IMG/VR virus record: IMGVR_UViG_2698536369_000029
Span: 1-16,353 of that record
Source of the DNA: a virus
Taxonomy: Duplodnaviria; Heunggongvirae; Uroviricota; Caudoviricetes
Length of the DNA: 16,353 nucleotides
Strand: one strand, 5' to 3'
Position 1 is the first letter of the stretch. The number at the start of each line of letters is the position of its first letter. Below are positions 1,607 through 16,353 of the stretch, one piece after another. The notes beneath the pieces were generated by a model. It made no database searches. It was not told the DNA's origin and saw only the letters and a program-made list of their open reading frames with translations. The position numbers and the translations under genes are program-made.

Positions 1607-1614
1607 GCATTACC

Positions 1615-1761: not shown

Positions 1762-1764
1762 TCT

Positions 1765-2007: not shown

Positions 2008-2038
2008 TTTTTCTCCTGCTCTCTGAATAGTGAGAACT

Positions 2039-2410: not shown

Positions 2411-2450
2411 CTGCTTTTCCCTTAGCCCGGCGGTCTGCCGGGCGTATAAG

Positions 2451-3278
2451 TTATTTAACCTGGATAAATGGTGTACTGGCACCGCTGGTCATGTATTGCG
2501 GCAGTGTGCCGTTCCATTTATTAATGGCTTCCAGTTCCATAACACCAGGGTTCTGGCGCAGAGCTTCACCGCGTAAACGAATAGCATCGGCTTCGGCCTG
2601 GGCTTTTGTGCGAATGGCGTCAGCCTGTCCGGCAGCTTCCGCGCGCAACATGTTGGCTTCCGCTTCGCGCTGTTTTACTTCCTGTTCGCGTTGCAGGGTC
2701 TTCTGGTTTGCCGTGACTTTGGCATTAATGCTGTCGATAACGGTTGGCGGGTACTCCGGCTTACCCACATATGAGAGACTCATTACCTGAATACCGATGG
2801 GCGTCATTTCTGCCTGAATGTCTTTAAGGGCTGCATCCAGCAGCTCAGACTTGCCGCCGTCGATAAATTTGTCAGTGGTCATTTTGCTGGCCAGTCGGTT
2901 GAGTGCGTCGGCGATCTTCTGGCGCAGGTCAGTGTCGGTAATGTCATCCACGCCTTTGCGGTAGGTCTGAAACACCGTGGTAACTTTGGATGGATCAACT
3001 TTGTAGGCCACACCAATGTGATAGCCGATGGTTGTACCGTCACTCATCTGGAAACTGAACGGTTCATCGTAGGTCTTCATTTGCTTGAAGGTGGGGAAGA
3101 TGTAAACTTCAGTATTCCAGCCAGTCCAGTAGCGACCAACACCGACCACCTCACCGACGCCTTTGTCGTCGCCCAGTTTATTTACCTTGATGCCAACATT
3201 ACCTGGTTCAACGCGATCGCAACCGACAAGGCCAATAGTCGGCAGAACAATGGCTAAAGCAAAAATAATTTTTTTCAT
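2451..3278 (-). CDS. SPFH/band-7 (prohibitin-like) domain lipoprotein
   Basis: 275 aa. N-terminal signal peptide with lipobox LVGC (MKKIIFALAIVLPTIGLVGC), an SPFH-like core, and a C-terminal Ala/Glu/Arg/Gln-rich coiled-coil tail. AAGGA Shine-Dalgarno 6 nt upstream. Confidence 0.8.
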   Translation of the reverse strand: MKKIIFALAIVLPTIGLVGCDRVEPGNVGIKVNKLGDDKGVGEVVGVGRYWTGWNTEVYIFPTFKQMKTYDEPFSFQMSDGTTIGYHIGVAYKVDPSKVTTVFQTYRKGVDDITDTDLRQKIADALNRLASKMTTDKFIDGGKSELLDAALKDIQAEMTPIGIQVMSLSYVGKPEYPPTVIDSINAKVTANQKTLQREQEVKQREAEANMLRAEAAGQADAIRTKAQAEADAIRLRGEALRQNPGVMELEAINKWNGTLPQYMTSGASTPFIQVK

Positions 3279-3463
3279 CTTTTATCCTTAGTGAAAGAAA
3301 GACCTTTGTAAATGGCATAAATGCAGGGCGGGGTCAGAAACGCCAGTGCAAAGCCAGAAATAACAGCTATCGTATCCTTCATGGATATAAGGAACGGAAC
3401 AAGTAATCCGTAAATACATGCGATAATTGCCAGTAAAATTACTATTGTGAAATACAGTCTCAT
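3275..3463 (-). CDS. Small two-helix membrane protein, translationally coupled to the SPFH gene
   Basis: 62-aa highly hydrophobic ORF whose stop overlaps the SPFH start codon by 4 nt. No strong Shine-Dalgarno. Candidate NfeD-like partner, by position only. Confidence 0.4.
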   Translation of the reverse strand: MRLYFTIVILLAIIACIYGLLVPFLISMKDTIAVISGFALAFLTPPCIYAIYKGLSFTKDKR

Positions 3464-3487
3464 TGGTCTGTGGTATCCCGATATTTT

Positions 3488-3594
3488 TAACCGACTGACA
3501 GCACAATAAAGAGAATAATGATTTCAGTTAGTGTCAGTACTGTGGCAAGGATTAAAATCAGTTTTACTCTGTTTAATTCACGGTTGCTTTTCAT
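3488..3594 (-). CDS. Possible 35-aa hydrophobic peptide
   Basis: Hand-translated minus-strand ORF MKSNRELNRVKLILILATVLTLTEIIILFIVLSVG. No recognisable RBS, so it is weakly supported. Confidence 0.2.
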
Positions 3595-3640
3595 ACAAAC
3601 GGTTAGTAAAAAACTGGAAGAATTATTTTCTTCTTAATAT

Positions 3641-4222
3641 TTAATGTGTCACTGGCGCTTCTGGCATACCATGAGTATTCAGGTCGTTAATCATTTCATC
3701 CAGAAGGAGTTCAAGCCCTTCGCGCCCCATAGCAGAAACAATGAAACCATTATCAGGATCTGCGATGAGCATATTTTGATAGAGAAACAGAACTCGCCCC
3801 ATGCCTTCAGCTTCGCCATATTTTTCAATAAATCCCCATTCGACATGGTTTTGCAGGGCAATGCGAAGTGATCCTGGGTATATACTCATGCAACCATGCT
3901 TCCCCTTATAAATAACAGCGCGATCTGTAGTTCCGTTATCGTTAGGGATATCAATGGTGCCGTTCTTGCCTTCTTCTTCATTTATAAACGTCGTCACATA
4001 CAGCCATCGCCATTGAGCAATCTTCATATCGACTGAAAATCGTCCCAGTAATCCGGCATCATCGGCTTCAGCAATACATTGCATAATTCTTAAACCGTGA
4101 GAATTTGGATAATCGTATTCACCATCATTAAGCCGCTGTACGGCCTCAACATAATCAATGGTTGTATTGCCAATTTTTATGCCATGTGGCGTAACTTCTG
4201 GTCGGAACTCTGAATGATTCAT
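3641..4222 (-). CDS. Hypothetical protein (193 aa), function unknown
   Basis: Start at internal ATG (MNHSEF...) with AAGGAG Shine-Dalgarno 8 nt upstream. The first ATG of the track ORF (4279) lies inside the upstream gene. Confidence 0.6.
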   Translation of the reverse strand: MNHSEFRPEVTPHGIKIGNTTIDYVEAVQRLNDGEYDYPNSHGLRIMQCIAEADDAGLLGRFSVDMKIAQWRWLYVTTFINEEEGKNGTIDIPNDNGTTDRAVIYKGKHGCMSIYPGSLRIALQNHVEWGFIEKYGEAEGMGRVLFLYQNMLIADPDNGFIVSAMGREGLELLLDEMINDLNTHGMPEAPVTH

Positions 4223-4407
4223 AATGTTTGCTCCTTTGCTGGTGGAATAATCGTGTAGCCAGCTCTTTTTGCCATCCACAGAAATGTATCCATGCAGCCA
4301 ACGAATTCATTATCCAACAGATGTTTTGAGTAAATTACTTCACCATTTTCAATGGTTAGCAACACTCTAACTTTTTTATGTGTTATGTTCTGTTGTTTTT
4401 CTTTCAT
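4219..4407 (-). CDS. Small hypothetical protein (62 aa), translationally coupled to the 3641..4222 gene
   Basis: GGGAGA Shine-Dalgarno 7 nt upstream. Its stop overlaps the downstream start (ATGA overlap). Confidence 0.45.
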   Translation of the reverse strand: MKEKQQNITHKKVRVLLTIENGEVIYSKHLLDNEFVGCMDTFLWMAKRAGYTIIPPAKEQTL

Positions 4408-4603
4408 TTATTTATCTCCCATATGCTTTGCGCAAATACAGGTTGGCTATATGAAGATAAGAATCTCCATGTTGTGCAATGAGGCAGGCAGTTTTATACG
4501 ATGCCTTATGTTTCAGGAAGGTCATAACATAATCTCCTGCGAATAAAGATTGCAACAATCCCCGGCGATAAAACCGTAATAAACATTCAGGGGATATTTA
4601 TTG

Positions 4604-4969
4604 TTATTGCGCTAATTCTTTTTCGGCAGCAGATTTTGCATATTCACATGCAAAATTCAGAATTTCGCTGCCAAGTGTTTTTGTTTCGTGATTACTGGAC
4701 ATATGTAATACCTGTGTTGCATGCAATAAATGATAAACATTTACCGCAAATGAGTCCGGCTCCAGACAAATGCCTTCATAATCATCTTGTTGTGAGGTTG
4801 TTTCTGTCATTGCTCCTGAAGTGCATGCGAGCCTGTTTTTGACAATTCTCTTTCCTCTAATCACTATATCGGCAACATCTATTGCCTTTACAACCTCCGG
4901 GAGAAGTTCCGGGTTTGTATAATCAAAGTCATCAACATGGAGAACAGTTATGTTTTCGAACTTTTTCAT
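4604..4969 (-). CDS. Hypothetical protein (121 aa)
   Basis: ORF with AGGA Shine-Dalgarno about 4 nt upstream of the ATG. No recognisable domain. Confidence 0.5.
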   Translation of the reverse strand: MKKFENITVLHVDDFDYTNPELLPEVVKAIDVADIVIRGKRIVKNRLACTSGAMTETTSQQDDYEGICLEPDSFAVNVYHLLHATQVLHMSSNHETKTLGSEILNFACEYAKSAAEKELAQ

Positions 4970-5097
4970 GGCTTCCTCAGCTGACTTATATGTTCTGCTA
5001 TATAGCGAGTCTCAGAAGTGTTTTCATATTGAGACTGTTTCCGCAATGATTGATAAAAATGTTCGCATGTACCTTGAGGGGCGAAGCGGCGATTATG

Positions 5098-5646
5098 TCA
5101 CCATTGGTATTGGTTCTTCCGTAGAAGAGCTTCGCGAGATAAGGAGCAAACTTGTTGAGATGCGTCATGGTGTTGCTGCTCCTCACTTTTTGGTTGCTCC
5201 GGAGGAGTAACCTCGCCAGTTAACAGCCACATCGGATCGCAGCCAAGAATATTTGCCAGTGGGATAAGCATACTGATGGTTGGTTCATACTCTCCGCTCT
5301 CCCACTGAATGATGATTTCTTCATCGAGATCGAGCAGCCTGGCGAGTTCGGCGGTTGTTAAGCCGCAGGCTTCGCGTTGGGTGCGAAGGTTAACCAGCCA
5401 GCTTTTAGGAAAGGATTGTTTTTGTTGTGCAGGAGAAGCCGCAGATAGAGCATATTCATGGATAAATTCCATTACCTCAATGCCCAATTCCTTTGAGCGA
5501 GCACAATCCAGAAGATGGAATGTGCGTACAGCACTTAGCAAATTTGCAATATTTAATGCAAAGGAATCAAGTTCTAAGCCTTCAAGCGTAACACAGCCGC
5601 AGTTGATAAAATTAGTTGTTTCTGGACTTGCTTTTAGTGTCTTCAT
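5098..5646 (-). CDS. HTH (XRE-type) DNA-binding protein with the HTH in the C-terminal half; first gene of the leftward early operon
   Basis: 182 aa. The segment CGLTTAELARLLDLDEEIIIQWESGEYEPTISMLIPLANILGCDPMWLL is a typical XRE helix-turn-helix, preceded by an unrelated roughly 80-aa N-terminal domain. GGTGG Shine-Dalgarno-like upstream. Confidence 0.55.
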   Translation of the reverse strand: MKTLKASPETTNFINCGCVTLEGLELDSFALNIANLLSAVRTFHLLDCARSKELGIEVMEFIHEYALSAASPAQQKQSFPKSWLVNLRTQREACGLTTAELARLLDLDEEIIIQWESGEYEPTISMLIPLANILGCDPMWLLTGEVTPPEQPKSEEQQHHDASQQVCSLSREALLRKNQYQW

Positions 5647-5699
5647 ATACCCACCAACAATTTTAAATTGAATTTAATCAAGTTATAATTGATGGTGCG

Positions 5700-5728
5700 A
5701 TATTATGCTTTGAGAAATAGGCTGTCAA
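5700..5728 (-). promoter_or_regulatory. Candidate leftward early promoter (PL-like)
   Basis: On the minus strand: TTGACA (plus 5723-5728), 17-bp spacer, TAATAT (plus 5700-5705), about 50 nt upstream of the 5646 start. Flanked by ATCAAGT/ATTGAT motifs related to those in the cI-cro intergenic region. Confidence 0.45.
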
Positions 5729-5758
5729 GAAAAAATTGATATCGTGTGTTTTAGGCAG

Positions 5759-5780
5759 AAAAAAACGGGCAAAGCCCGTT
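5759..5780 (-). terminator. Rho-independent terminator downstream of the cI-like gene
   Basis: Plus-strand AAAAAAACGGGCAAAGCCCGTT; on the minus strand this is a GC hairpin (CGGGC/GCCCG, 3-nt loop) followed by a run of 7 U, immediately after the repressor stop at 5792. Confidence 0.55.
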
Positions 5781-5791
5781 AAAATCAAAGA

Positions 5792-6481
5792 CTAACCAAA
5801 TCTGTTTATATTGAATGGTACTGATGAGATCACTTTAGACTGGATATAAAGCAGAGCTAACCCCTCTTTTTCGATGCTCCATGGTTGATAATTGGGGTTA
5901 TCAGATAACACCATGATTTTGCTTCCAATTTTTTGAAGTCTTTTCACGTAGCATTCTCCATCAAAACAAAATGCATAAATGCCATCGCCATCAAAATAAG
6001 TTACTGTCTTATCAAGAAAAAGAAGGTCGCCAGGTGAGATTGTGGGAGCCATACTGTCTCCTCTGGCGTTACCTATTTCTATATTTTTGAATGCCCGATT
6101 TCCAACAAGGCGTCGGGCATATTCAGGATCAAGTTCTATTGAGCGCACTACATCTATCAAGTCACCACGGACATGAGTTCCATCACCGCAACTAAACTCA
6201 ACATCAAGGACATTAAACACGACGCTATCTGTTCTTGTCTGGTGTTTCTCTTGCGAGGAAAAGGTTGGTGAGGAGTCTTCACCTAAGAACCAGGATTGTG
6301 GATAACCGCTAATCTCGGATAAATGCGCGAGCTTATCACTCCGTGGAAATGTTTTTCCTGTTGTCCAGTACTGCACTGATTGCGCACTCACACCTAACTT
6401 GCGGGCCAGTTGAGCCTGAGTCCATCCTTTTGCTTTCAGCATCGCGGCTATTCGATTTTCCGTGTTTTTGACGTTCTTCAT
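5792..6481 (-). CDS. cI: CI-like phage repressor (N-terminal HTH plus C-terminal S24/LexA-type autopeptidase)
   Basis: N-terminal XRE HTH (WTQAQLARKLGVSAQSVQYW) and C-terminal S24 domain with the catalytic Ser in GDSMAPT and a downstream Lys (YVKRL). Start set at ATG 6481 with AGGA Shine-Dalgarno; the track ORF starts two codons earlier at a TTG. Confidence 0.85.
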   Translation of the reverse strand: MKNVKNTENRIAAMLKAKGWTQAQLARKLGVSAQSVQYWTTGKTFPRSDKLAHLSEISGYPQSWFLGEDSSPTFSSQEKHQTRTDSVVFNVLDVEFSCGDGTHVRGDLIDVVRSIELDPEYARRLVGNRAFKNIEIGNARGDSMAPTISPGDLLFLDKTVTYFDGDGIYAFCFDGECYVKRLQKIGSKIMVLSDNPNYQPWSIEKEGLALLYIQSKVISSVPFNINRFG

Positions 6482-6614
6482 GACCAAATCCTGTGGGTTT
6501 CTTTACAAGGATAAATCTTTACTTGATTTTAGTGTATTCGATCCTTTTGCAACTTGCATGTTAATTTAAACTTGATGTATTCTTGATTTATAAAGTTAAT
6601 GTTGGTGCTTTATT
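6482..6614. promoter_or_regulatory. Divergent cI/cro control region (OR-like) with repeated operator-like motifs
   Basis: 133-bp AT-rich intergenic region between divergent repressor and cro genes. ACTTGAT-like motifs recur at 6521, 6552 (ACTTGCA), 6570 and 6581 (TCTTGAT). Confidence 0.5.
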
Positions 6615-6887
6615 ATGAAAGGAAATGATTACGACAAACTTCGTGCATTAATTGCGCAAAATGCCATAGCGCGAAATCTTGGTGTGACGCCGCAAGCGGT
6701 GAATCAGTGGTTTTCAAAAAACACAATTCCTGCTCGTTTCGTTTTACGCGTATGTGAAGTAGTTGCATGGAAGGTCACGCCACATGGCTTAAGGCCAGAT
6801 CTTTATCCTCACCCTGAAGATGGAATTCCTGATTCGTTACGCAAAATTTCAAATCCAAGCTTAGCGCACACAGAGGACGAGAAGTGA
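6615..6887 (+). CDS. cro: Cro/YdaS-like HTH regulator
   Basis: 90 aa. NLGVTPQAVNQWFSKNTIP...LRPDLY matches the remembered YdaS/Cro-type pattern (LGVSPQAVNQW...RVP...LRPDIF). Divergent from cI. Confidence 0.75.
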   Translation: MKGNDYDKLRALIAQNAIARNLGVTPQAVNQWFSKNTIPARFVLRVCEVVAWKVTPHGLRPDLYPHPEDGIPDSLRKISNPSLAHTEDEK

Positions 6888-6927
6888 TGGTGGTGATATG
6901 AGCGAAAAAATAACTATTAAATACGAT

Positions 6928-6950
6928 GGGGCAACCATTTCGATTGCCCC
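6928..6950. terminator. Hairpin between convergent genes (possible bidirectional terminator)
   Basis: GGGGCAA-(9 nt)-TTGCCCC inverted repeat, A-rich on its plus-strand 5' side (T-rich after the hairpin on the minus strand). Lies between the cro stop (6887) and the stop of the minus-strand gene (6958). Confidence 0.3.
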
Positions 6951-6957
6951 AATCACA

Positions 6958-7251
6958 TTAGCGTTCGCTGAGAAGTTGTTGGTAAGCCTTAAAGGATGCG
7001 AACTGCATTCTACCTTCGGCATTGATTCCAATGCCTTCGCTTGTACACCAGGTGATGAACTCGGCTGTATCCGCTTCAACTTTAATAACTCGTTGCCCGC
7101 TTCTTTCGACACGCTTAATCAATTTTTCAGCGTCGTGTTTCCACTCGGTGTAACTGTCGGAGAGCACATCAGCATCAGTAAAAATATTTTTGAGCTCATG
7201 ATACTGAATCGCATCGCGAAACCAGAATAAACCAACGGCCTGAACTTTCAT
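6958..7251 (-). CDS. Hypothetical protein (97 aa) convergent with cro
   Basis: Very strong AAGGAGG Shine-Dalgarno 7 nt upstream of the ATG at 7251. Charged, protein-like composition. Preferred over the fully overlapping plus-strand ORF 6898..7230. Confidence 0.5.
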   Translation of the reverse strand: MKVQAVGLFWFRDAIQYHELKNIFTDADVLSDSYTEWKHDAEKLIKRVERSGQRVIKVEADTAEFITWCTSEGIGINAEGRMQFASFKAYQQLLSER

Positions 7252-7364
7252 GTCGAACCTCCTTTGGTTCTTTTGTTTATAGGGATCAAAAGGATAACTG
7301 AAGGAAGGTTCGGCACCAATAAGTACGAATGTGCGGAATCTTAAAAGAATTTATCCGTAAGGAG

Positions 7365-8078
7365 ATGGCAGTGAACACCGCAATTTTTAACGACAAAGCA
7401 TCCATGACCAGCGTTGAGATCGCAGAGCTGGTGGGTAGTCAGCACTCAGATGTTAAACGTAGTATCGAACGCCTGGTTGCTAAAAACATCATCCGGAAAC
7501 CGCCAATGGCTGTTTCCGAGAAAATCAATAACTTAGGTTTTAAAGTTCAATATGAGCATTACCTGTTTGAAGGAGAACAAGGTAAGCGCGACAGCATCAT
7601 TGTCGTCGCACAGCTCTGCCCTGAATTCACTGCTCGCCTGGTAGATCGCTGGCGTGAACTGGAAGAACAGATCCGTAAGCCAATGAGCGAAATTGAAATG
7701 GTTGCTGCGATGGCTCTTGAAGCTGTTCGCCAGCAGAAACGGATCACTCAGGTGGAAGAAAAAGTCAGCCATGTTGCCGAAACAGTTGAGCAAATCAAAA
7801 AGGGCACCATTCGTGAGGGCTATGCCGGATATCGCCAACTGAAAGCAAAAACCGGTTTGTCAGATGATAAATGCCGCAATCTGGTGAACGCCTATCAAAT
7901 TCCTACAGACACCCATGAGTTCATGACGCCGGACGGATTGTTGTCACGTCGCGCAATTGTTGCTGTGGAACCGTTTATGGCTGCTTTTTATCGGGTTATG
8001 GAGGAAGCAGAACCGCGAGGGACTCGCTGGTATCACCCGAAAATGGGGTTATTTCAGGTTATTGGTTGGCAGCGGTGA
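7365..8078 (+). CDS. rha: Rha-family phage regulatory protein
   Basis: MTSVEIAELVGSQHSDVKRSIERL followed by ...FEGEQGKRDSIIVVAQLCPEFTARLVDRW matches the remembered Rha family signature. Start is ATG 7365 directly after TAAGGAG, or GTG 7371 with better spacing. Confidence 0.75.
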   Translation: MAVNTAIFNDKASMTSVEIAELVGSQHSDVKRSIERLVAKNIIRKPPMAVSEKINNLGFKVQYEHYLFEGEQGKRDSIIVVAQLCPEFTARLVDRWRELEEQIRKPMSEIEMVAAMALEAVRQQKRITQVEEKVSHVAETVEQIKKGTIREGYAGYRQLKAKTGLSDDKCRNLVNAYQIPTDTHEFMTPDGLLSRRAIVAVEPFMAAFYRVMEEAEPRGTRWYHPKMGLFQVIGWQR

Positions 8079-8102
8079 AAAAAAGCCGGGTAGTGACCCG
8101 GC
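8078..8102 (-). terminator. Hairpin with flanking homopolymer run, terminator-like on the minus strand
   Basis: Plus-strand AAAAAAAGCCGGGTAGTGACCCGGC: a 7-bp GC stem with 4-nt loop; on the minus strand the hairpin is followed by T7. It sits immediately after the Rha stop codon. Confidence 0.4.
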
Positions 8103-8190
8103 TCGCTCAACGTTGGTAAAGGCAACTTCACTGAGAAGTAAGCCAGTAACATCCAAGAACATTTGCGTTAGTAAAAATACCAGTAAGCAT

Positions 8191-8853
8191 ATGAATGTTT
8201 CAAGCCTAAATATTGATTCTGCAATTTCGGGACGTTACACTGTTCCTGCACCTTATAAAGCGGGTGCCGGGATTGGCGTCCTGGAAATGTTATCGGCGAT
8301 ATATGACGCGCCAGCGTCTTTTTTATCGTCTGCGTCTGCGCACACCCAAATTATGGTGGGCTGGACGGGGGCACCGAAAGGTGCGCCGGTTTCCGATAAC
8401 GCCGGTTACGCCAACCCCGTTCAGTTCACCACCAGCGAAATTGGCGTTTCCGGTGGTGAAGGTAATTCACTGTTATCGGAGGCTGCCATCATGGCTACAG
8501 TCCCAACTTCCCCATACCTGAAAATCGAAGTCGTCAACGGCAAGGCCGTTATTTTCTCCCTGCATGTTGCCTGCCACTTTAAGCGCATGCACCAGAACAT
8601 CGTCGACAAAATCGAGTATCTGAACTGCTCACGTGAATTCTTCTCCCGTAATTTCATTCCGGGTACTTACCACGTGTATGGCGATTCCCTGCGTGGTTAT
8701 TACATCACCCTTGATGGTCTGATGATGCTTCAGCTTGGGTTAAGTCTGCGCACAATGCGGTACTACGAGAGCTGTATTGAAGCATTTCATGAGGCCGAAA
8801 CCAGCCTGACTCACACTGCTTTCAGCCGTAATCAATGGGAGGTGCGCCCATGA
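8191..8853 (+). CDS. Hypothetical phage protein (220 aa; alternative start at 8491 gives 120 aa)
   Basis: Long ORF with E. coli-like codons throughout. ATG 8191 has only a weak RBS, whereas the internal ATG 8491 has GGAGG 8 nt upstream. A terminator-like hairpin (8305-8324) lies inside the longer version, so the true start is uncertain. Confidence 0.45.
   Translation: MNVSSLNIDSAISGRYTVPAPYKAGAGIGVLEMLSAIYDAPASFLSSASAHTQIMVGWTGAPKGAPVSDNAGYANPVQFTTSEIGVSGGEGNSLLSEAAIMATVPTSPYLKIEVVNGKAVIFSLHVACHFKRMHQNIVDKIEYLNCSREFFSRNFIPGTYHVYGDSLRGYYITLDGLMMLQLGLSLRTMRYYESCIEAFHEAETSLTHTAFSRNQWEVRP
8305..8324 (+). terminator. Terminator-like hairpin plus T-run (GACGC-GCCA-GCGTC-TTTTTT)
   Basis: 5-bp GC stem, 4-nt loop, 6 T on the plus strand. 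It lies within the N-terminal part of the 8191 ORF, so it is either an early-operon terminator (if the gene starts at 8491) or a coincidental coding hairpin. Confidence 0.3.
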
Positions 8854-9074
8854 TTCGCCGCGTCGTTAATTCCCTGTATCACCGATACAACCGTTGCCCC
8901 CGTGTGGGGCAGTGGTTTGCCACCAGCAACGGCCATGTTCTGCGGGTTTGCCTGGTCAGTACCGAAAGCCAGAAAGTCGTGTGTGAATTACTGGGGCGTA
9001 ACTACACCATCAGTTACCCACTGGTGGCGTTTCAGTCCGGAAAAATGTTTAAACGCCTGGGAGGCGCCGTGTGA
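8850..9074 (+). CDS. Small hypothetical protein (74 aa)
   Basis: ATG 8850 with GGAGGTG Shine-Dalgarno; ATGA overlap with the upstream stop, and its own stop overlaps the downstream GTG start. Confidence 0.45.
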   Translation: MIRRVVNSLYHRYNRCPRVGQWFATSNGHVLRVCLVSTESQKVVCELLGRNYTISYPLVAFQSGKMFKRLGGAV

Positions 9075-10063
9075 GTCGTTACGCTCCAACACCGGAAGTT
9101 ATGGCTATTGGTCAAATTAATATTTCCGGCAATGTCACACCAGCGAACTGGTGGAAACATATTCGGCTACCCAGTGGTCGTCCGGATGCGACCGCTATCG
9201 CCCTGCTCTCAGAGATCGTTTACTGGTACCGCCCGACAGAAGTCAGGGATGAACATACCGGGGCTTTGCTGGGATATCGCAAGCGTTTTCAGGGGGACAA
9301 GCTGCAAAGAAGTTATCAGGCGTTTGCTGAGCAGTTTGGTTTCGGGAAAAGGGAAACCGCGGATGCGTTGAAGCGCCTTCGTGATGCCGGGTTTATTTCC
9401 CTGGATTTACGCACTGTGGAAATGCTCGACGGTGTGAAATGCAGCAATATTTTGTTTGTCGGGATCAACCCACAGGCAATTGCTGCCATTACTACTCCTT
9501 CTTCTGTTTCGCCAGAAAGTAACAGCAATAACGCAATCAGCGATACAGCTATTACGTTAAAACGGAACACCCCCCAACGTCATAACGGAACAGGGGATAC
9601 GCCGAATGTTGATACAAATACAGAGATTACTACAGAGATTACAACGGAGACTAAAAACACTATTGGCGCATCCGCTGACGCGTCTGCACCAGCGCGTTCT
9701 GCCCGACAGGAATATTCACCGGAATTTGAACAGGCCTGGCAGGAATATCCCAAACGTGCTGGTGGTAATTCCAAGTCGGCAGCCTTCAAAGCCTGGAAAG
9801 CCCGTCTCAGGGAGGGAATAAAACCGGAGACCATGCTTGATGGTGTGAGACGTTATGCCGCTTGGGTACGTGCTACAGGAAATACCGGCACACAGTTCGT
9901 GAAGCAGGCTGCGACGTTCTTTGGACCCGATCGTCACTTCGAAGACTTCTGGCAACAGCCAGCCGCTCCCGGAGGTGGGCGACAGCGACAGGTCGATGTC
10001 CTGGCTGGCCTGGGAGCCATGTCTGACAAATTCGGTAAATCCAGTGACAAATTGACATTCTGA
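9071..10063 (+). CDS. Replication initiator/organiser protein (lambda O-like by position)
   Basis: 330 aa. GTG start with GGGAGG Shine-Dalgarno 8 nt upstream. Two domains separated by a low-complexity linker (NGTGDTPNVDTNTEITTEITTETKNT) whose DNA carries iteron-like repeats. Sits directly upstream of the DnaC-like and DnaB-like genes. Confidence 0.6.
   Translation: MSRYAPTPEVMAIGQINISGNVTPANWWKHIRLPSGRPDATAIALLSEIVYWYRPTEVRDEHTGALLGYRKRFQGDKLQRSYQAFAEQFGFGKRETADALKRLRDAGFISLDLRTVEMLDGVKCSNILFVGINPQAIAAITTPSSVSPESNSNNAISDTAITLKRNTPQRHNGTGDTPNVDTNTEITTEITTETKNTIGASADASAPARSARQEYSPEFEQAWQEYPKRAGGNSKSAAFKAWKARLREGIKPETMLDGVRRYAAWVRATGNTGTQFVKQAATFFGPDRHFEDFWQQPAAPGGGRQRQVDVLAGLGAMSDKFGKSSDKLTF
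9596..9654. repeat. Iteron-like direct repeats inside the initiator gene (candidate ori)
   Basis: ACAGAGATTAC occurs twice with a 12-bp period (9620-9630 and 9632-9642), followed by the degenerate copy AACGGAGACTAA. GATAC/GATTAC cores also at about 9596 and 9611. Confidence 0.4.
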
Positions 10064-10073
10064 GGTGACAGCG

Positions 10074-10952
10074 ATGATGACGTTTAACCTGCGTGAACAA
10101 CAAAAAAGACTACAGGCGCGAATGGATGAGTTACGGGCAGAGATTGCATTTGCTCAGAAGGGCGAAAAGCCATGGCCTTATCGTTCCTGCCTGATGCGTG
10201 AAGGTCGCGGATATTGCGAAAAACACGGTAAATACCATACGCATATACTGGTGTGGAGCGATCGTAATGGCGAGGACAGAGAAAAAATTTCATGCTGCCC
10301 TGACTGCTTGATCGCTGAGGCCAACGATTTGACCATGGAATTGTCGTCCATCAAGGCGGAAGAGCTGACTGATAACGCCGGAATTGCCCTGCGTTTTCGG
10401 GACTGCGAGTTTGATAATTATCTGGAGGTTAATCCTGACGCAGCCAGAAATCTTGCAGCCTGTCGCCGCTATGCGGAGAACTGGCCAGATATGCTGGAGA
10501 ACGGCACCAGTCTTGTTATGACTGGCAGTTGCGGTACCGGGAAAAATCATCTGGCGGTATCAATGGCAAAACACATCATCCGTAACTATCTGGCCAGTGT
10601 GGAGATCACCGACGTGATGCGTCTTACCCGTGCTGTGAAAAACTGCTGGCGGAATGACAGCGAAAAAACAGCGGATGAAGTTATTGAGCATTATGCGTCA
10701 ATGGATTTGCTGATCATCGACGAAGTTGGTGTTCAGTTTGGCAGCGCGGCTGAAATGGCTATTTTGCAGGAAATTATCAATGCCCGGTACGAAAGTATTC
10801 TGCCCACCATCCTGATTAGCAACCTTTCACCGGATGAGTTGTGGGCGTTCATCAGCCCCCGCATTGCCGACAGGATCACAGACGGGGGGCGCAACTGGTT
10901 GTCGTTCAACTGGCCCAGCTACCGTTCTCGTATCAGAGGTGTGGCTGCATGA
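10074..10952 (+). CDS. dnaC: DnaC-like helicase loader (AAA+ ATPase)
   Basis: Walker A GSCGTGKNHLA, Walker B LLIIDEVG, and C-terminal NWPSYRSR, which closely matches the E. coli DnaC motif NWDSYRSR. ATG 10074 with GAGGTGA Shine-Dalgarno. N-terminal Cys/His cluster (CEKHGKYHTH...CCPDC). Confidence 0.85.
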   Translation: MMTFNLREQQKRLQARMDELRAEIAFAQKGEKPWPYRSCLMREGRGYCEKHGKYHTHILVWSDRNGEDREKISCCPDCLIAEANDLTMELSSIKAEELTDNAGIALRFRDCEFDNYLEVNPDAARNLAACRRYAENWPDMLENGTSLVMTGSCGTGKNHLAVSMAKHIIRNYLASVEITDVMRLTRAVKNCWRNDSEKTADEVIEHYASMDLLIIDEVGVQFGSAAEMAILQEIINARYESILPTILISNLSPDELWAFISPRIADRITDGGRNWLSFNWPSYRSRIRGVAA

Positions 10953-12340
10953 CAATACCAGTCTGGCGTAACGATGACCTGGAAGGCGCTGTTATTGGCG
11001 CGTTCTTTCTGCGTGGGGCAGATCCTGAAGTGATGGATATTCTGGCCACACTGCCAGCGGACGTTTTTTCTGTACGAGCGTATCGGGATATCTACACAGG
11101 CATCTGCAGACAGGCCCGTGTTTCAGGTGTGATTGATCCTGTGCTGTTGTGTAATGAGATGCCGGAACTTGCTCCGGTGATTACTGATACCGGGCGTAAA
11201 ACCTGGGTGAAGTCTTCACTGGAGCACTATGTTACGGCGTTGCGTCGCAATGCTGCATTGCGTGATGCAGAAAAAACACTTAATGAGGCGTTGCAGAAAT
11301 TACGTGATGCGCATACCTGTGAAGCAGCTGAAGATGCTCTGAAGGATGCGCAGAACATGATGGCCTCATTGTCGACGGAAAAGGGCGTTATTCAGCCGGT
11401 ACATATTGGTGATGTGCTTCCGGAAGTGGTTGAGCGTGTTGAATGCCGGAATCAGGGACTGGAAAAATCCAGAACGTTGATGACCGGTATTGATGAACTG
11501 GACGCAAAAACGGGCGGCATGGAGCCTGGCGACCTGGTATTTATTGCTGCACGTCCTTCGATGGGCAAAACCGAACTGGCGCTGGATATCATCGACAAGG
11601 TGACTGAGCAGGGGCATGGTGTTCTTCTGTTCACAATGGAAATGGCGAACATCCAGATTGGTGAACGCATGGTATCTGCGGCTGGAGGAATGCCGGTATC
11701 ACGCCTGAAATCTGTCACTCACTTTGAAGACGAAGACTGGGCACGTTTCTCACAAGGAGTGGGGCGGATGACCGGGCGCAATATCTGGATGGTGGACCAG
11801 GCGAACCTGACCATTGATGAGATATGCGCAACAACGAAGCATCACCTGATTAAACATCCGGAAACGGCGCTGGTGGTGGTTGATTATCTCGGGCTGATAA
11901 AAACCCGAACCACGGGGCGTCATGACCTTGCCGTGGGTGAAATCTCAAAGGGGCTTAAAGGCCTGGCAAAATCCGGTGGTTTTCCGTTGATTGCGCTGAG
12001 CCAGCTTTCCCGTGGTGTGGAGTCCAGGCCCAATAAACGCCCTATGAACTCAGACCTGAAAAATTCCGGAGAAATAGAGGCGGATGCAGACATCATTCTG
12101 ATGCTTTACAGGGATGAAGTGTACAACCCGGATACGCAGGCCAGAGGCATTGCAGAAATCAATATCACGAAACAACGTAACGGTTCTCTGGGGACGATTT
12201 ACCGGCGTTTTTATAACGGACATTTTCTGCCCGTAGACCAGGAAAGCGCACAGATTCTTTCCACCCCAATGCAGCAGCCCCAGCCGCGCAGATACAGCAA
12301 TAAGCGAACCGACAGCAGTAAGATGGAGCGTTTCTTTTGA
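10949..12340 (+). CDS. dnaB: DnaB-family replicative DNA helicase
   Basis: 463 aa from ATG 10949 (ATGA overlap with the loader stop). Walker A GDLVFIAARPSMGKTELALDI closely matches E. coli DnaB (GDLIIVAARPSMGKT), with a RecA-like C-terminal domain. Confidence 0.85.
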   Translation: MTIPVWRNDDLEGAVIGAFFLRGADPEVMDILATLPADVFSVRAYRDIYTGICRQARVSGVIDPVLLCNEMPELAPVITDTGRKTWVKSSLEHYVTALRRNAALRDAEKTLNEALQKLRDAHTCEAAEDALKDAQNMMASLSTEKGVIQPVHIGDVLPEVVERVECRNQGLEKSRTLMTGIDELDAKTGGMEPGDLVFIAARPSMGKTELALDIIDKVTEQGHGVLLFTMEMANIQIGERMVSAAGGMPVSRLKSVTHFEDEDWARFSQGVGRMTGRNIWMVDQANLTIDEICATTKHHLIKHPETALVVVDYLGLIKTRTTGRHDLAVGEISKGLKGLAKSGGFPLIALSQLSRGVESRPNKRPMNSDLKNSGEIEADADIILMLYRDEVYNPDTQARGIAEINITKQRNGSLGTIYRRFYNGHFLPVDQESAQILSTPMQQPQPRRYSNKRTDSSKMERFF

Positions 12341-12594
12341 ACAACCAGACCATGACTTTTACGCCTGAACAATTACGTAAACAGGCACAGGAAATGTTAC
12401 GACAGGCGGAACAACTGGAAAAGACAGGCGTAACAAAAGATGCCATTCGTAAGGATATGGTGCCAGCGCTCAGGGAACTGATGCAGGCGAAACACCGCGC
12501 ACAAAAAGCAGTGGATGAGCTGGTGGATTGTGTGGCAGAGCTGGAAACCAAAGTTGGAAAGTTCGAAAAACTGGTGCAGGAGGTACTGCGCTGA
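12337..12594 (+). CDS. Small coiled-coil protein (about 80-85 aa), function unknown
   Basis: Charged, helical-looking sequence (EQLRKQAQEMLRQAEQLEK...). Start is TTG 12337 (GGAG 8 nt upstream) or ATG 12352. Confidence 0.45.
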   Translation: MNNQTMTFTPEQLRKQAQEMLRQAEQLEKTGVTKDAIRKDMVPALRELMQAKHRAQKAVDELVDCVAELETKVGKFEKLVQEVLR

Positions 12595-12962
12595 TGCGTG
12601 ATATGTACGAAGTTTTAGATCGTTGGGGGGCCTGGGCTGCAGCAGATAACAGTGGTGTGGACTGGCAGCCGATAGCAGCAGGCTTCAAGGGGCTTTTACC
12701 ACACGGTAAAAAGTCACGTCTCCAGTGTGATGATGACGAAGGTATCATGATAGACGGTTGTGTGGCTCGGTTGCGAAAGTATAAACCCGAAGAGTATGAG
12801 TTGATCATTGCTCACTTTGTTATTGGTATCTCATTACGCGCTATTGCTAAAAAACGGAAATGTTCAGATGGAACAATACGGAAAGAGATGCAAACAGCAA
12901 TGGGGTTTATTGATGGCTGCTTGTCATTTTTCATTTACTACAATGACTTAAGTTCTATGTAA
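12594..12962 (+). CDS. Q: Late-gene antiterminator Q-like protein
   Basis: 122 aa from ATG 12594 (TGATG overlap, AGGAGG upstream). Cys-containing segment QCDDDEGIMIDGCVARLRKYKPEEYELIIAHFVIGISLRAIAKKRKCSDGTIRKE resembles the remembered phage antitermination Q family. Position after the replication genes fits. Confidence 0.6.
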   Translation: MRDMYEVLDRWGAWAAADNSGVDWQPIAAGFKGLLPHGKKSRLQCDDDEGIMIDGCVARLRKYKPEEYELIIAHFVIGISLRAIAKKRKCSDGTIRKEMQTAMGFIDGCLSFFIYYNDLSSM

Positions 12963-12964
12963 AA

Positions 12965-12999
12965 TCGTTCTACTTTCCCAACTTTTATGTGTATATAAT
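12965..12999 (+). promoter_or_regulatory. Candidate sigma-70 promoter upstream of the methyltransferase (possibly the Q-dependent late promoter)
   Basis: Perfect TATAAT at 12994-12999, about 27 nt upstream of the GTG start; the -35 region is poor (TACTTT/TTTCCC). Confidence 0.3.
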
Positions 13000-13025
13000 A
13001 CCAAGATAAAGTAACGGAGAATCTT

Positions 13026-14066
13026 GTGAACATTCAGGCAGTAGACATTTTTTGTGGTGCGGGGGGCTTAACTTTTGGGCTAAAAAAAGCCGGGATTGAG
13101 GTTTCTCATGGTATTGATATTGATGAATCCTGCCGTTTTGCTATTGAGAGCAATAATCCTTTAACGCAGTTCATTAATCGGTCAGTTACAGAACTGCAAT
13201 CCTGCGATGTGTCTGCTATGTTCAAGGAAGGAAATATTAGATTGCTTGCTGGATGTGCTCCTTGCCAACCGTTTTCCAAGTATCGTAATCCAAATAGCCG
13301 TAAAGACGATACAAAGTGGCGTTTGTTATATGAGTTTCAAAGGCTTGTAAGTGATGTCATGCCAGAGCTTGTGACGATGGAGAATGTTCCTCAACTTAGA
13401 AACCATAAGGTTTTTGAAGGGTTTGTTAGTGCATTAAAGACTCTTGGATATCATTTGTGGTACGACGTTGTAAGATGTTCTGAGTATGGCTTACCTCAAA
13501 ATAGACGTAGATTAATTCTAATTGGTTCCCAATTGGGGCCGATCAGCCTTGATCAAAAAAAAGTTAGCCGTAAAGTTACTGTTAAGGATGCTATTGGTAG
13601 GTTGCCAAAAGTAGGGGCAGGTGAGAAGCTGGAAAGCGATCCCTTGCATCGTTCGCCTAAATTGATGGATATCAATCTTAAACGAATCATGCATTCTTTA
13701 CCTGGTGGTACGTGGGATGACTGGCCTGAAGAAATTAGAGCAGACTGTCATAAAAAGAATTCAGGTGCTACCTATAAAAGCGTTTATGGACGGATGGTTT
13801 GGGACGATACTAGCCCTACGATAACTACCCAGTGTTATGGATATGGAAATGGACGATTTGGCCATCCTGAGCAAAATCGCGCCATAACTTTGCGTGAAGC
13901 TGCGATTTTGCAATCCTTTCCAATGGATTATAAATTCCTTGACAAGGAGACGCCTTTTTCATTCCAAAAATTGGGGACAATGATTGGAAATGCTGTTCCC
14001 CCTATAATTGGTCAGATAATAGGGGAAACATTTATCAGACATGTTGAGGGGATAAATACCCGTTAG
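13026..14066 (+). CDS. DNA (cytosine-5)-methyltransferase
   Basis: GTG start with GGAG 6 nt upstream. Canonical C5-MTase motifs: motif I DIFCGAGG (AdoMet binding), motif IV PCQPFS (catalytic Cys), motif VI ENV, motif VIII QNRRR, and a C-terminal NAVPP-type motif. Confidence 0.85.
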   Translation: MNIQAVDIFCGAGGLTFGLKKAGIEVSHGIDIDESCRFAIESNNPLTQFINRSVTELQSCDVSAMFKEGNIRLLAGCAPCQPFSKYRNPNSRKDDTKWRLLYEFQRLVSDVMPELVTMENVPQLRNHKVFEGFVSALKTLGYHLWYDVVRCSEYGLPQNRRRLILIGSQLGPISLDQKKVSRKVTVKDAIGRLPKVGAGEKLESDPLHRSPKLMDINLKRIMHSLPGGTWDDWPEEIRADCHKKNSGATYKSVYGRMVWDDTSPTITTQCYGYGNGRFGHPEQNRAITLREAAILQSFPMDYKFLDKETPFSFQKLGTMIGNAVPPIIGQIIGETFIRHVEGINTR

Positions 14067-14724
14067 AGGTAATATAATTTTCTGTTGAGTTGATTAATAA
14101 ACGCAAATATAGATCAATTCTTTCTGACCTCGATTTGACTTCTTCTAAAGGGTCTATTTGACCTTTTTTAGAAAAGCTGGTACTTCCATGTGCCAGCTCA
14201 TTTCTGATATCTTTAAGTAAATCTAAGTCAACACCATTTCTACACTCTGGTGAGTTTGCAACAGTTATTCCGTAAGCTTGTGTTATTTTGTGCAATACAG
14301 ACTTGCAAACATTACCATTGAATTCTTTACGTATGTTTAATGAGGCTGAAATGATCCTTTTAGATATATCGGAACCAATTTTTTGATAAAGAGATTTTCC
14401 CGATTCATTATCTGAAATGATACGGTGCAAGATATTTACTTGGAATTTCTCCCTGAGTGATGCGTAATTTACTTCATTATCTTGCAAATGGTCATAAATT
14501 GACTCAATGCATCCTCTGGCAGTGTTTTCAACCTGATTGTACAGCATCATGTGCACGGATGATTTTAAAATGTTAACCCTAAGGGTATTTGATTCTATTT
14601 CATCTTTATGCGTTTGCTGATCTAACTGCTGAGTCTGAGCCTCTAAAGATGACGCAAGAGAAAGCAATTCCATAATATCTCTTGCTCTTTCTTCGTATTC
14701 ATCTCTTAAATCAATCAAACTCAT
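14035..14724 (-). CDS. HEPN-like protein (putative nuclease), second gene of the DUF262-HEPN operon
   Basis: 229 aa, largely helical-looking, with an R-x4-H motif (RNELAHG) near the C-terminus as expected for HEPN. ATG lies 2 nt after the DUF262 stop, with AGGAA Shine-Dalgarno inside the upstream gene. Its 3' end overlaps the convergent MTase by about 32 bp. The specific family (MAE_28990-like) is recalled, not verified. Confidence 0.65.
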   Translation of the reverse strand: MSLIDLRDEYEERARDIMELLSLASSLEAQTQQLDQQTHKDEIESNTLRVNILKSSVHMMLYNQVENTARGCIESIYDHLQDNEVNYASLREKFQVNILHRIISDNESGKSLYQKIGSDISKRIISASLNIRKEFNGNVCKSVLHKITQAYGITVANSPECRNGVDLDLLKDIRNELAHGSTSFSKKGQIDPLEEVKSRSERIDLYLRLLINSTENYITSNGYLSPQHV

Positions 14725-14726
14725 AG

Positions 14727-15884
14727 TTACATTCCTAATAATTTATCTTTGACATAAAATATTCTGTTTTTGAGTTGGCTGGTGTTGTTGGCACTATCAG
14801 CAGTAACTATGGTTTCAAATTCCTCCCCAAACAGCCAGTCTCCTACAGGAATAACCGGAGCCTGTAGATGTGGATTGGCTTTTAAGGCAAGAGCAGTTCC
14901 CACTGCTATGGCTTCGTATCTAGCACGGGGGGTGGTTTTGCTTGTTGGTGTCTTTTTAAACCCCATAGGGAAATGAGCATCTACAAAAGCAAGCATGCTT
15001 TCAAAATCATGTTTAAATTTGTCAACATCTTGTTGTGTGACCCTTTCGGCCTGAACATTAAGATAATTGTCAATAAAAGGAGCGACATAACCCTTATAAT
15101 TTTCTAAATCATTTAAGTATGCAAAAAATCTCAAAACTAACTCACGATGATCGCCATTCGAACGCTTCCGGTCTGATAATGGAGCTAGACTAGCGAAAAG
15201 TGGATTTGTTGAGCAAGGAGTCACAACATCCCTATAGAAAATTGAAGTGGCCGCATCTGAACCATGTCTAACCTCCATCGCTTCCAGTCTCTTAACACCT
15301 GAATTTATTCTTTCGAATAAATCTCTTCTATGTTGCTCCTCAACATCACCTTTCAATTCAATAAATCTTAGTGATGCCCTTAAAAATCGCCTCTGGCGGC
15401 TAGCCAAAAGATCTGAAAATTTGAAGCCCTCTAAACTTTTGAGTTCTTTTAAGTCTTTCAATTCAAACTGATTGTTCCAAAAGTAGTAAATTGAGCGAAT
15501 CCTTTGTGAACCGTCAATAATTTCTGCACGACCATCCAACTCAGGATCTTCATTAAATACGTCGGAGATGTAGAGGTACGGGATTGGAAAATCTAATAAT
15601 ATACTTTCGATGAATCGAGAGGCTGTTTTGATATCCCATTTGTAATCGCGTTGATAATCAGGAATAAAAAGTTCGTTTTTGTCAGTTTCAAGATTATTGC
15701 CATACTTTTGTACAATTAATTCAACGGTCCATTCACGTACGTTGTATCCAATATTTCTCTGAGCAAGCCTAATCTCGTTGTCGGCAGAAGTGACCAAGGC
15801 TGCAATTTCAGCTTTTTTTCTATTTTTCGCGTTTTCATCTTGAATCTGAGCAAGCTCTTCTTTGAGTTCTTTGAGTGTGGTCAT
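14727..15884 (-). CDS. DUF262 (ParB/Srx-like, GmrSD N-terminal type) domain protein
   Basis: 385 aa. Hallmark DUF262 motifs FIPDYQRDYKW and IIDGSQR (DGQQR-type). No recognisable HNH/DUF1524 nuclease domain in the C-terminal half. AAAGGAA Shine-Dalgarno 7-8 nt upstream. Confidence 0.8.
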   Translation of the reverse strand: MTTLKELKEELAQIQDENAKNRKKAEIAALVTSADNEIRLAQRNIGYNVREWTVELIVQKYGNNLETDKNELFIPDYQRDYKWDIKTASRFIESILLDFPIPYLYISDVFNEDPELDGRAEIIDGSQRIRSIYYFWNNQFELKDLKELKSLEGFKFSDLLASRQRRFLRASLRFIELKGDVEEQHRRDLFERINSGVKRLEAMEVRHGSDAATSIFYRDVVTPCSTNPLFASLAPLSDRKRSNGDHRELVLRFFAYLNDLENYKGYVAPFIDNYLNVQAERVTQQDVDKFKHDFESMLAFVDAHFPMGFKKTPTSKTTPRARYEAIAVGTALALKANPHLQAPVIPVGDWLFGEEFETIVTADSANNTSQLKNRIFYVKDKLLGM

Positions 15885-15906
15885 ATCACTGTTCCTTTAA
15901 TTGGAG

Positions 15907-15956
15907 TTGGAAATAGATTGTAAGAAAACTATAACGCGTACGCAAAAAATATTATA
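15907..15956. promoter_or_regulatory. Divergent promoter region (candidate plus-strand promoter; candidate minus-strand -10 for the DUF262 operon)
   Basis: Plus strand: TTGGAA (15907-15912), 17-bp spacer, TATAAC (15930-15935), followed by a second -10-like TATTAT at 15950-15955. Minus strand: perfect TATAAT (complement of 15951-15956) about 65 nt upstream of the DUF262 ATG, with a weak -35. Confidence 0.3.
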
Positions 15957-15994
15957 TCGTGTTAAGAGTGGTTACTACGCCACACAGCTTAAAC

Positions 15995-16014
15995 CCGCCG
16001 CCAGGCGGTTTTTT
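15995..16014 (+). terminator. Rho-independent terminator (plus strand)
   Basis: CCGCC-GCCA-GGCGG hairpin followed immediately by TTTTTT. On the minus strand it is preceded by the A-run and lacks a U-tract, so it is oriented for plus-strand transcripts. Confidence 0.5.
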
Positions 16015-16137
16015 GTGTCCGAAAAACGGCGCAGTACGTTAAACGTGCTGGTGGTTGCGAATACCGGTCTTTCAGCTTGCTGGCTTTTCAGACAAGAGTT
16101 ATTGGTGTGTCACGTTAACCAGAAAAGGGAAAAAGAC

Positions 16138-16242
16138 ATGCTAAAACAGCAGGATATGACCGAAACTGCCAGAGTGGTGTTTAATGAATTGAGCGTCACC
16201 GAACCGGCGACTGTCGGGGAAATTGCGCAGAATACTTACTGA
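16138..16242 (+). pseudogene. 5' fragment of a gene apparently truncated by the IS insertion
   Basis: ATG 16138 with AAGGGA Shine-Dalgarno 7 nt upstream; encodes MLKQQDMTETARVVFNELSVTEPATVGEIAQNTY and stops at a TGA formed by the first three bases of the IS terminal repeat (16240-16242). Confidence 0.35.
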
Positions 16243-16353
16243 ACCGCCCCGGGAATCCTGGAGACTAAACTCCCTGAGAAAGAGGTAAACAGAATGACTA
16301 AAAATACTCGTTTTTCCCCCGAAGTCCGTCAGAGGGCGATTCGTATGGTTCTG
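16240..16353 (+). mobile_element. Left end of an IS3-family insertion sequence (IS629/IS1203-like), continuing beyond the window
   Basis: Terminal sequence TGAACCGCCCCGGGAATCCTGGAGACTAAACTCCCTGAGAAAGAGGTAAACAGA followed by an orfA start. It begins with the TG typical of IS3-family ends and matches my recollection of the IS629 left end. Confidence 0.7.
16294..16353 (+). CDS. IS3-family transposase OrfA, N-terminal 20 codons (partial, runs off window)
   Basis: Translation MTKNTRFSPEVRQRAIRMVL matches the remembered N-terminus of IS629/IS1203 OrfA (MTKNTRFSPEVRQRAVRMVLE...). AGAGG Shine-Dalgarno upstream. Confidence 0.7.
   Translation, partial: MTKNTRFSPEVRQRAIRMVL

Follow-up and report, generated by a model that had tools for sequence, protein, structure and literature searches.

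The locus described here has its closest published counterpart in a computational survey, in which HEPN ribonucleases (RNases) linked to restriction–modification (R-M) systems were proposed to serve as defence effectors with a PrrC-like logic (Anantharaman et al. 2013, Biol Direct 8:15; PMC3710099) and in which one table line lists an operon of this type. We analysed a 16,353-nucleotide (nt) stretch of DNA from a virus of the class Caudoviricetes (IMG/VR record IMGVR_UViG_2698536369_000029, positions 1 to 16,353; hereafter, the window), whose Pfam-annotated open reading frames (ORFs) correspond to the left arm of an Escherichia coli lambdoid prophage. Downstream of the gene for the antiterminator Q, the window encodes a C5 cytosine DNA methyltransferase (methylase), a HEPN protein and a DUF262 protein, a trio that is inherited and transferred as one unit across phyla and kinds of mobile element. 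The trio has all three features of the 2013 operon (a HEPN protein of the same PF18737 family, a ParB/DUF262 partner and a DNA methylase neighbour; PMC3710099). That work provided the table line and a general hypothesis, without counts, gene orders, methylase clade, host range or experiment (PMC3710099); carriage by prophages, P2 and Tn7 elements and the existence of methylase-less lineages are described in the present analysis. Searches of the accessible literature for experimental work on the trio returned general reviews and the computational mention of 2013, but no such study. The genes of the trio are arranged as follows (amino acids, aa):

13026–14066, plus strand: C5 cytosine DNA methyltransferase, 346 aa, with a GTG start and GGAG 7 nt upstream
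14035–14066, both strands: 32-bp overlap of the convergent 3′ ends of the methylase and HEPN genes
14035–14724, minus strand: HEPN protein of the MAE_28990 family, 229 aa (PF18737 HEPN_MAE_28990, 3.8e-16; PF18735, 6.7e-8)
14727–15884, minus strand: DUF262 protein (ParB/Srx-fold NTPase with a helical C-terminal half), 385 aa (PF03235 GmrSD_N, 1.2e-25)

Comparison with characterized systems placed the trio beside several of them and inside none; it matches no complete system in the 2023 PADLOC model set. PD-T4-2 from E. coli ECOR65, which pairs one DUF262 gene with one HEPN gene, has validated activity against T4 (Vassallo et al. 2022, PMC9519451). The DUF262 protein of the window matches the PADLOC model PD-T4-2_A (4.6e-27), whereas the HEPN protein has no match to PD-T4-2_B at E ≤ 0.01; PD-T4-2 is also smaller (1.54 kb versus 1.85 kb for the window pair) and has no methylase. 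Membership was rejected given that the B component was undetected, as judged by the PADLOC 2023 models. The best PADLOC model for the DUF262 protein, ahead of PD-T4-2_A, is NsnA of Menshen (NsnABC; 9.8e-46), with which it has in common a ParB–DUF262 and helical DNA-binding architecture. Neither the NsnB ABC ATPase nor the NsnC effector was found in the window, 13026–16353 contains no ATPase gene and the HEPN gene lies downstream instead; Menshen membership was rejected on the absence of NsnB and NsnC. The Menshen survey read the ParB–DUF262 plus ParBDB architecture as a DNA sensor, reported solitary methylases beside some loci and speculated that DUF262 may target unmodified DNA. SspABCD–SspE likewise couples a host DNA-modification module to a DUF262 sensor; SspABCD–SspE and Dnd differ from the window in using a phosphorothioate mark and a fused DUF1524 nickase, as opposed to 5-methylcytosine and a separate, predicted HEPN RNase. 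GmrSD and BrxU are single proteins in which a DUF1524 HNH DNase attacks modified DNA and which lack a cognate methylase, whereas the DUF262 protein of the window matches PF03235 only, lacks DUF1524 and is linked to a methylase, for which reasons membership of the GmrSD/Type IV group was rejected. In PrrC–EcoprrI, a HEPN RNase is also embedded with a DNA methylation system as an RNA-level arm of defence; PrrC, however, has its own ABC ATPase domain and a full hsdMSR with a DNase, whereas the window has no R subunit and a separate ParB-fold NTPase. A classical Type II R-M system was rejected as well: the methylase has complete catalytic motifs, but no cognate DNA endonuclease (PD-(D/E)xK, HNH, GIY-YIG or PLD) was matched in Pfam, NCBIfam or PADLOC.

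The linkage of the three genes is complete within E. coli. Megablast searches of 5426 complete E. coli genomes with positions 12963–15960 identified the block in 107, and all 107 cover 100% of it, including all three genes. These copies fall into two classes (73 at ≥99% identity and 34 at ~87%) that reside in two different prophages, that of the ~87% class being integrated at dusA, equipped with a lambda-type holin and Mu/P2-like baseplate genes, and ordered as Q, methylase (forward), HEPN and DUF262 (both reverse) and lysis genes. Window positions 12592–16013 align with a second E. coli prophage, EcPF16, as continuous 86.5% homology that begins where Q starts and extends to a hairpin terminator. 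An unrelated Q gene in the second prophage had been considered and was dropped, as the alignment puts Q inside the common block. Q is outside the trio, yet co-inherited with it in lambdoid prophages; its family occurs in 604 E. coli genomes compared with 107 for the trio. The INPHARED phage collection gave no megablast match to the cassette. Close HEPN homologues (41–99% identity) form 31 clusters, and the trio was present in every context examined. It adjoins Q in a Yersinia mollaretii lambdoid prophage, lies in a Salmonella bongori prophage without Q adjacency and is cargo of a Tn7-like transposon (TnsB/C/D/E) in Pseudoalteromonas (HEPN 41% identical). Methylase homologues of 55–64% identity in Providencia, Proteus and Halomonadaceae all adjoin HEPN and DUF262 genes, within an integrase island in Providencia and in the chromosome in Halomonadaceae (including Halomonas).

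In prophages, the cassette is cargo of a variable slot that separates Q from the lysis genes and that holds different accessory genes in related prophages. In E. coli O121:H19 FWSEC0006 (locus L231, 5196–7500), a 90%-identical Q is followed in the same slot by another methylase and ParB pair, a DNA adenine methylase (plus strand) convergent with a 467-aa protein with a ParB/Srx N-terminal domain (minus strand) and with no HEPN gene, which may be an analogous module. The Q-to-holin slot of E. coli FEA3 (L232, 4858–6346) holds two reverse-strand hypothetical genes of 191 and 301 aa, a candidate for another cargo system. In a Proteus mirabilis-type P2-like prophage (L091, 4001–6928), the trio is flanked by the replication gene gpA and the portal gene, presumably the slot in which P2 carries tin/old and other defence cargo.

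The linkage extends far beyond these relatives. A pattern derived from the HEPN alignment was scanned against one genome per species, yielding 80 loci with HEPN proteins 20–37% identical, and against viral contigs, yielding 52 further loci; ORFs were called at the loci and searched with profiles built from the three window proteins. The 80 genome loci span Cyanobacteria, Alpha-, Beta-, Gamma- and Delta-proteobacteria, Verrucomicrobia, Planctomycetes, Bacteroidota, Actinobacteria (Collinsella and Micromonospora), Leptospira and Chloroflexi. HEPN is immediately preceded by DUF262 in 137 of 138 loci, and a C5 methylase is adjacent in 126 of the 134 informative loci (those with enough flanking sequence to judge methylase adjacency). 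The methylase is convergent with the pair in 94 of them, upstream and co-directional in 15, downstream and co-directional in 14 and incomplete in three (one remnant and two copies cut by a contig end). When HEPN proteins were clustered at 90% identity, every informative member had an intact adjacent methylase in 63 of 70 clusters. Carriers include lambdoid and P2-like prophages, a Tn7-like transposon and chromosomes. That the linkage outlasts changes of gene order, host phylum and carrier strongly supports a functional unit. The overlap of the methylase and HEPN 3′ ends is itself variable, measuring 38 bp in Yersinia, 35 bp in S. bongori and 4 bp in Pseudoalteromonas, with 4 bp the commonest spacing among distant convergent loci. 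At nearly all loci across phyla, identity to the window proteins is 47–57% for the methylase, 35–45% for DUF262 and 20–29% for HEPN, and the pairwise-distance matrices of the three proteins correlate (Spearman; methylase–DUF262, 0.62; methylase–HEPN, 0.61; DUF262–HEPN, 0.79). The methylases of the trio form one conserved clade, with two exceptions: L009 (31% identical), a divergent relative with the same C-terminal signature, and L059 (25% identical), which belongs to a different C5 family.

The reverse test, based on the neighbours of the 80 best methylase relatives in viral contigs, gave a concordant result. DUF262–HEPN adjoins 59 of the 80; a further 12 adjoin a 650–760-aa HATPase_c_3 protein (MORC-like GHKL ATPase; five were checked with Pfam), three adjoin a NERD plus UvrD-like helicase protein and only two have no obvious partner. 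Given that its relatives are mostly partnered, the methylase clade appears to be the M component of several R-M-like modules and no orphan. The preliminary description of the window had left two options open, a functional link to the nuclease pair or an orphan anti-restriction methylase. Were the methylase an orphan, it would lie beside DUF262–HEPN by chance, in a slot crowded with cargo. Orphan methylases are common in phages and the slot after Q does hold varied cargo, but every co-occurrence test contradicts the orphan option; we rejected it because co-occurrence is strongly positive in both directions (HEPN-based and methylase-based searches), and we regard it as highly improbable. The link to the pair was borne out as genomic linkage, and the proposed check of whether the three genes travel together in other genomes has been answered for Yersinia, Salmonella, Providencia, Proteus, Halomonas, Pseudoalteromonas and many phyla. 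The methylase–HATPase_c_3 pairs have the same methylase clade (51–57% identical to that of the window) and the same layout (convergent or tandem) with a single ATPase as partner, and are often found in prophages beside an S24 repressor gene:

L093–L096, 5047–7044: methylase and HATPase_c_3 pairs
L181, 6038–7996: methylase and HATPase_c_3 pair
L184, 6239–8530: methylase and HATPase_c_3 pair
L200, 3041–5032: methylase and HATPase_c_3 pair
L213, 6029–8035: methylase and HATPase_c_3 pair
L220, 6483–8609: methylase and HATPase_c_3 pair

We further examined the proteins individually. The methylase covers positions 2–322 of the 324 of PF00145 (E = 1.5e-53) and exceeds the cut-off of TIGR00675 (120.8 bits versus 100.65). 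All six of the diagnostic C5 motifs are readable in the translation (I, DIFCGAGG; IV, GCAPCQPFS; VI, ENV; VIII, QNRRR; IX, TLREAAILQSFP; and X, GNAVPP). PADLOC models matched are MTase_II (2.5e-87), DrmMII (4.9e-85) and DruM (7.5e-73), that is, the protein resembles the DISARM and Druantia methylase models (at 1e-85 and 1e-73). Among 44 non-redundant members, residues ~220–300 are the most conserved stretch; these lie between motifs VIII and IX, the usual place of the variable target-recognition domain (TRD). Conservation that peaks in the TRD region suggests one recognition sequence common to the members of the family. A PDB sequence search with the methylase returned only catalytic-core matches to DNMT1, HaeIII and HhaI, with no assignable TRD, and the source annotations of its relatives are all the generic 'DNA cytosine methyltransferase'. 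The HEPN protein scores above the 26.8-bit cut-off of PF18737 and contains the Rx4H motif R174-N-E-L-A-H179, of which R174, N175, L177, A178 and H179, together with G180, are invariant among relatives; the motif (RNxLAHG) is retained in distant loci too. The family has 1279 representatives of 50%-identity clusters. The protein is predicted to be an RNase effector. A PDB sequence search with it found nothing significant, and its predicted structure model is of low confidence. The DUF262 protein carries the motifs IPDYQR (74–79), DGSQR (124–128) and FERINSG (190–196), which are invariant among relatives; it also gave nothing significant in a PDB sequence search, its fold matches BrxU, SspE and ParB, and we predict it to be a DNA sensor. 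Its gene stops 2 nt from the HEPN start, a spacing that indicates an operon. Searches of Pfam, NCBIfam and PADLOC matched no DNase family (DUF1524 included) in either protein; with HEPN, a domain typical of RNases, as the sole predicted nuclease domain, the only predicted nuclease of the trio is an RNase. PHROGs lists both partner families as function unknown. Catalytic motifs are intact in all three proteins. Several statements of the preliminary description therefore stand: all major C5 motifs are present, the methylase converges with the DUF262–HEPN operon with an overlap that it put at about 32 bp and that is exactly 32 bp, and the three genes look like one acquired block downstream of Q, which they adjoin and are co-inherited with. 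The GC content of 13001–16000 (0.33–0.42, compared with 0.50–0.53 in the replication module just upstream) fits such a block.

Considering these data, we favour, with modest confidence, a reading in which the trio is a mobile, self-contained immunity cassette that resembles an R-M system with an unconventional restriction arm. The C5 methylase would mark host and prophage DNA at a short sequence. The DUF262 protein, which we take to combine a ParB-fold NTPase with a helical domain that binds DNA, like SspE, BrxU and NsnA, would act as a DNA sensor and NTP-driven switch that responds to DNA without the methyl mark and then frees the HEPN RNase, so that RNA would be cut and translation would stop, with growth arrest or abortive infection as the outcome. 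A lysogen would thereby exclude incoming DNA, superinfecting phages included, and the progeny of the prophage itself would leave already methylated. We base this R-M-like model on precedents for each coupling—SspABCD–SspE for a modification with a DUF262 reader, PD-T4-2 for DUF262 with HEPN and PrrC–EcoprrI for a HEPN RNase with R-M—and carriage in variable cargo slots of prophages and transposons gives contextual support to a role in defence.

Several observations weigh against this reading. With no DNase domain detectable, the trio is not restriction in the classical sense, and we infer both what the RNase cuts and whether the sensor responds to unmethylated or to methylated DNA. The best-studied DUF262 enzymes, GmrSD and BrxU, attack modified rather than unmodified DNA, and a 1.8-kb clone of PD-T4-2, too short to include a methylase, protects E. 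coli K-12 (PMC9519451). The dependence expected of a linked system is not absolute: in eight informative loci, all cyanobacterial, the DUF262–HEPN pair has no adjacent methylase and is flanked by housekeeping genes (aconitase, MetH or GlyS). The catalytic motifs of these pairs are intact, and the Nostocaceae pairs are under purifying selection, with ratios of non-synonymous to synonymous substitution rates (dN/dS) of 0.08–0.23 at dS of up to 0.5, which together imply that the pair keeps a function without a neighbouring methylase. In Aphanizomenon flos-aquae FACHB-1287, exactly the 1.1-kb methylase gene has been deleted relative to Dolichospermum circinale, and the remaining pair is intact and 96% identical to that of Dolichospermum (pairwise dN/dS of 0.5–0.7, based on few substitutions). 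It is possible that a methylase acts in trans in these lineages or that dependence on it is conditional. The loci concerned are the following:

L026, L032, L036 and L045 (Nostocaceae), and L010 and L013: methylase-less pairs beside aconitase or MetH genes
L021, 6537–6566 (Aphanizomenon), versus L038, 6537–7655 (Dolichospermum): natural methylase knock-out

These loci bear on three other explanations. The pair could be a stand-alone system, either modification-dependent (Type IV-like) or a methylase-independent sensor and effector, with the methylase a frequent passenger that serves another purpose, such as shielding the DNA of the element from other restriction systems. The maintenance of methylase-less cyanobacterial pairs, the function of PD-T4-2 without a methylase (PMC9519451) and the recognition of modified cytosines by the DUF262 domains of GmrSD and BrxU would all agree with this. 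Against this, 126 of the 134 informative loci have an adjacent methylase, although gene order takes three forms and the carrier elements differ widely; the methylase clade is dedicated, co-diverges with the pair and is almost never solitary, and a sensor of 5-methylcytosine encoded beside a 5-methylcytosine methylase would be self-destructive. We consider this explanation unlikely. We give similarly little weight to a guard arrangement like that of PrrC–EcoprrI, in which the methylase, or a methylase–DUF262 complex, keeps the HEPN RNase latent until the methylase is inhibited or hijacked by phage proteins or unmodified DNA appears in a burst of replication, with self methylation secondary. This is the exact logic proposed for HEPN genes in R-M neighbourhoods (PMC3710099), and the tight linkage and co-evolution of the three genes also fit a protein complex; yet methylase-less pairs under purifying selection would then be constitutively toxic, and the divergent or unrelated C5 methylases of L009 and L059, each beside an ordinary pair, are easier to understand if the DNA mark is what matters. 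The trio may instead be mainly an addiction module for post-segregational killing that stabilizes its prophage or transposon, with defence incidental: loss of the element would dilute methylation and unleash the RNase. This follows the same logic as addiction by Type II R-M systems, is compatible with all of the linkage data and suits Proteobacteria, in which the trio is always on mobile elements or islands. It does not exclude defence, however, and it fits poorly with Aphanizomenon, which tolerates a clean methylase deletion while keeping the pair, and with the chromosomal, vertically inherited pair of Nostocaceae beside housekeeping genes; we regard it as improbable.

Sequences outside the coding regions of the cassette are conserved at both ends, and we identified the following features:

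12994–12999, plus strand: TATAAT −10-like hexamer inside the conserved TTTCCCAA..TATGTGTATATAATACCA, ~27 nt upstream of the methylase start
15885–15994, minus strand: conserved 5′ region of the DUF262–HEPN operon, AAGTAACCACTCTTAACA ... TTTTTGCGTACGCGTTA ... TACAAT
15936–15943: palindrome GCGTACGC in the conserved 5′ region of the DUF262–HEPN operon
15995–16008, plus strand: GC-rich hairpin followed by a T-run, resembling an intrinsic terminator, which closes the cassette (candidate tR′)

The TATAAT hexamer is located where PR′ is expected after Q and is kept in the two E. coli variants as well as in S. bongori, whose cassette lacks Q; judged by position and conservation, it is possibly PR′ or the methylase's own promoter. 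The region 15885–15994 is likely to be the promoter/operator of the DUF262–HEPN operon: 14 of 15 non-redundant enterobacterial variants carry GCGTACGCGTT unchanged, although their coding sequences have diverged to 58–77%. Within 15934–15943, the palindrome ACGCGT overlaps the palindrome GCGTACGC, and both are kept in 14 of the 15 enterobacterial variants; the S. bongori variant has GCGTCAGC. These palindromes may represent an operator or a methylation-sensitive site; neither GCGTACGC nor ACGCGT is over-represented in the window, and conservation among relatives is the only signal. Hairpins equivalent to that at 15995–16008, which lies inside the block in common with EcPF16, are found in the E. 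coli and Yersinia variants. A consensus promoter scan of 12400–16353 returned fewer sites than were found in shuffled sequences. If 12994–12999 is PR′, late Q-dependent transcription would, speculatively, run antisense through the DUF262–HEPN operon. A more specific form of the R-M-like reading, in which methylation gates abortive infection with an RNA-destroying arm, one recognition sequence is used across phyla and late Q-dependent antisense transcription silences the pair during the prophage's own lytic growth, is tentative and, in our estimation, rather doubtful as a whole.

The remainder of the window has the organization of a lambdoid prophage, with the Rha and Ash regulator genes between the S24 repressor and replication genes:

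1–1314, minus strand: integrase (ORF and Pfam annotation)
2451–3278, minus strand: SPFH/Band 7 family gene (PF01145, 8.2e-31)
5792–6487, minus strand: cI-like S24 repressor (ORF and Pfam annotation)
8248–8324, plus strand: isrK RNA (Rfam, 63.7 bits)
8349–8436, plus strand: C4 antisense RNA (Rfam, 82.8 bits)
10065–12340: DnaC-like loader and DnaB-type helicase (ORF and Pfam annotation)
12594–12962, plus strand: Q antiterminator (PF06530 Phage_antitermQ, 5.8e-47; longest ORF, 12528–12962)

The start of Q at 12594 follows the RefSeq style, the equivalent position being annotated in locus L002. The SPFH/Band 7 gene is an unusual accessory gene in the early-left prophage region near the integrase, and the isrK and C4 RNAs form a P1/P7-type immunity RNA module between the Rha and Ash regulator genes. 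The window closes (16243–16353) with what resembles an IS3-family left end; the sequence is TGAACCGCCCCGGGAATCCTGGAGAC, an ATG stands at 16295, and we take the element to be IS629-like. It breaks a 65-aa ORF starting at 16138 that is intact in strain Ecol_AZ146, and homology of the window to this strain ends at 16239.

If the R-M-like reading is correct, the trio would offer an R-M-like system that has no DNase and is open to experiment in E. coli, in which self and non-self are told apart by 5-methylcytosine and the response is RNA cleavage. It would join two large classes of immunity, R-M and HEPN-based abortive infection, and would widen the sensor role of DUF262, adding ordinary C5 methylation to phosphorothioate and hypermodified DNA. 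The value of an E. coli prophage copy of the predicted operon type is that it is directly testable. Given that this large and widespread family has no complete match among the 2023 PADLOC models, defence censuses may miss or mislabel the trio. About 2% of complete E. coli genomes carry the prophage-borne C5 methylase, which is probably active in lysogens and would affect their methylomes and DNA uptake.

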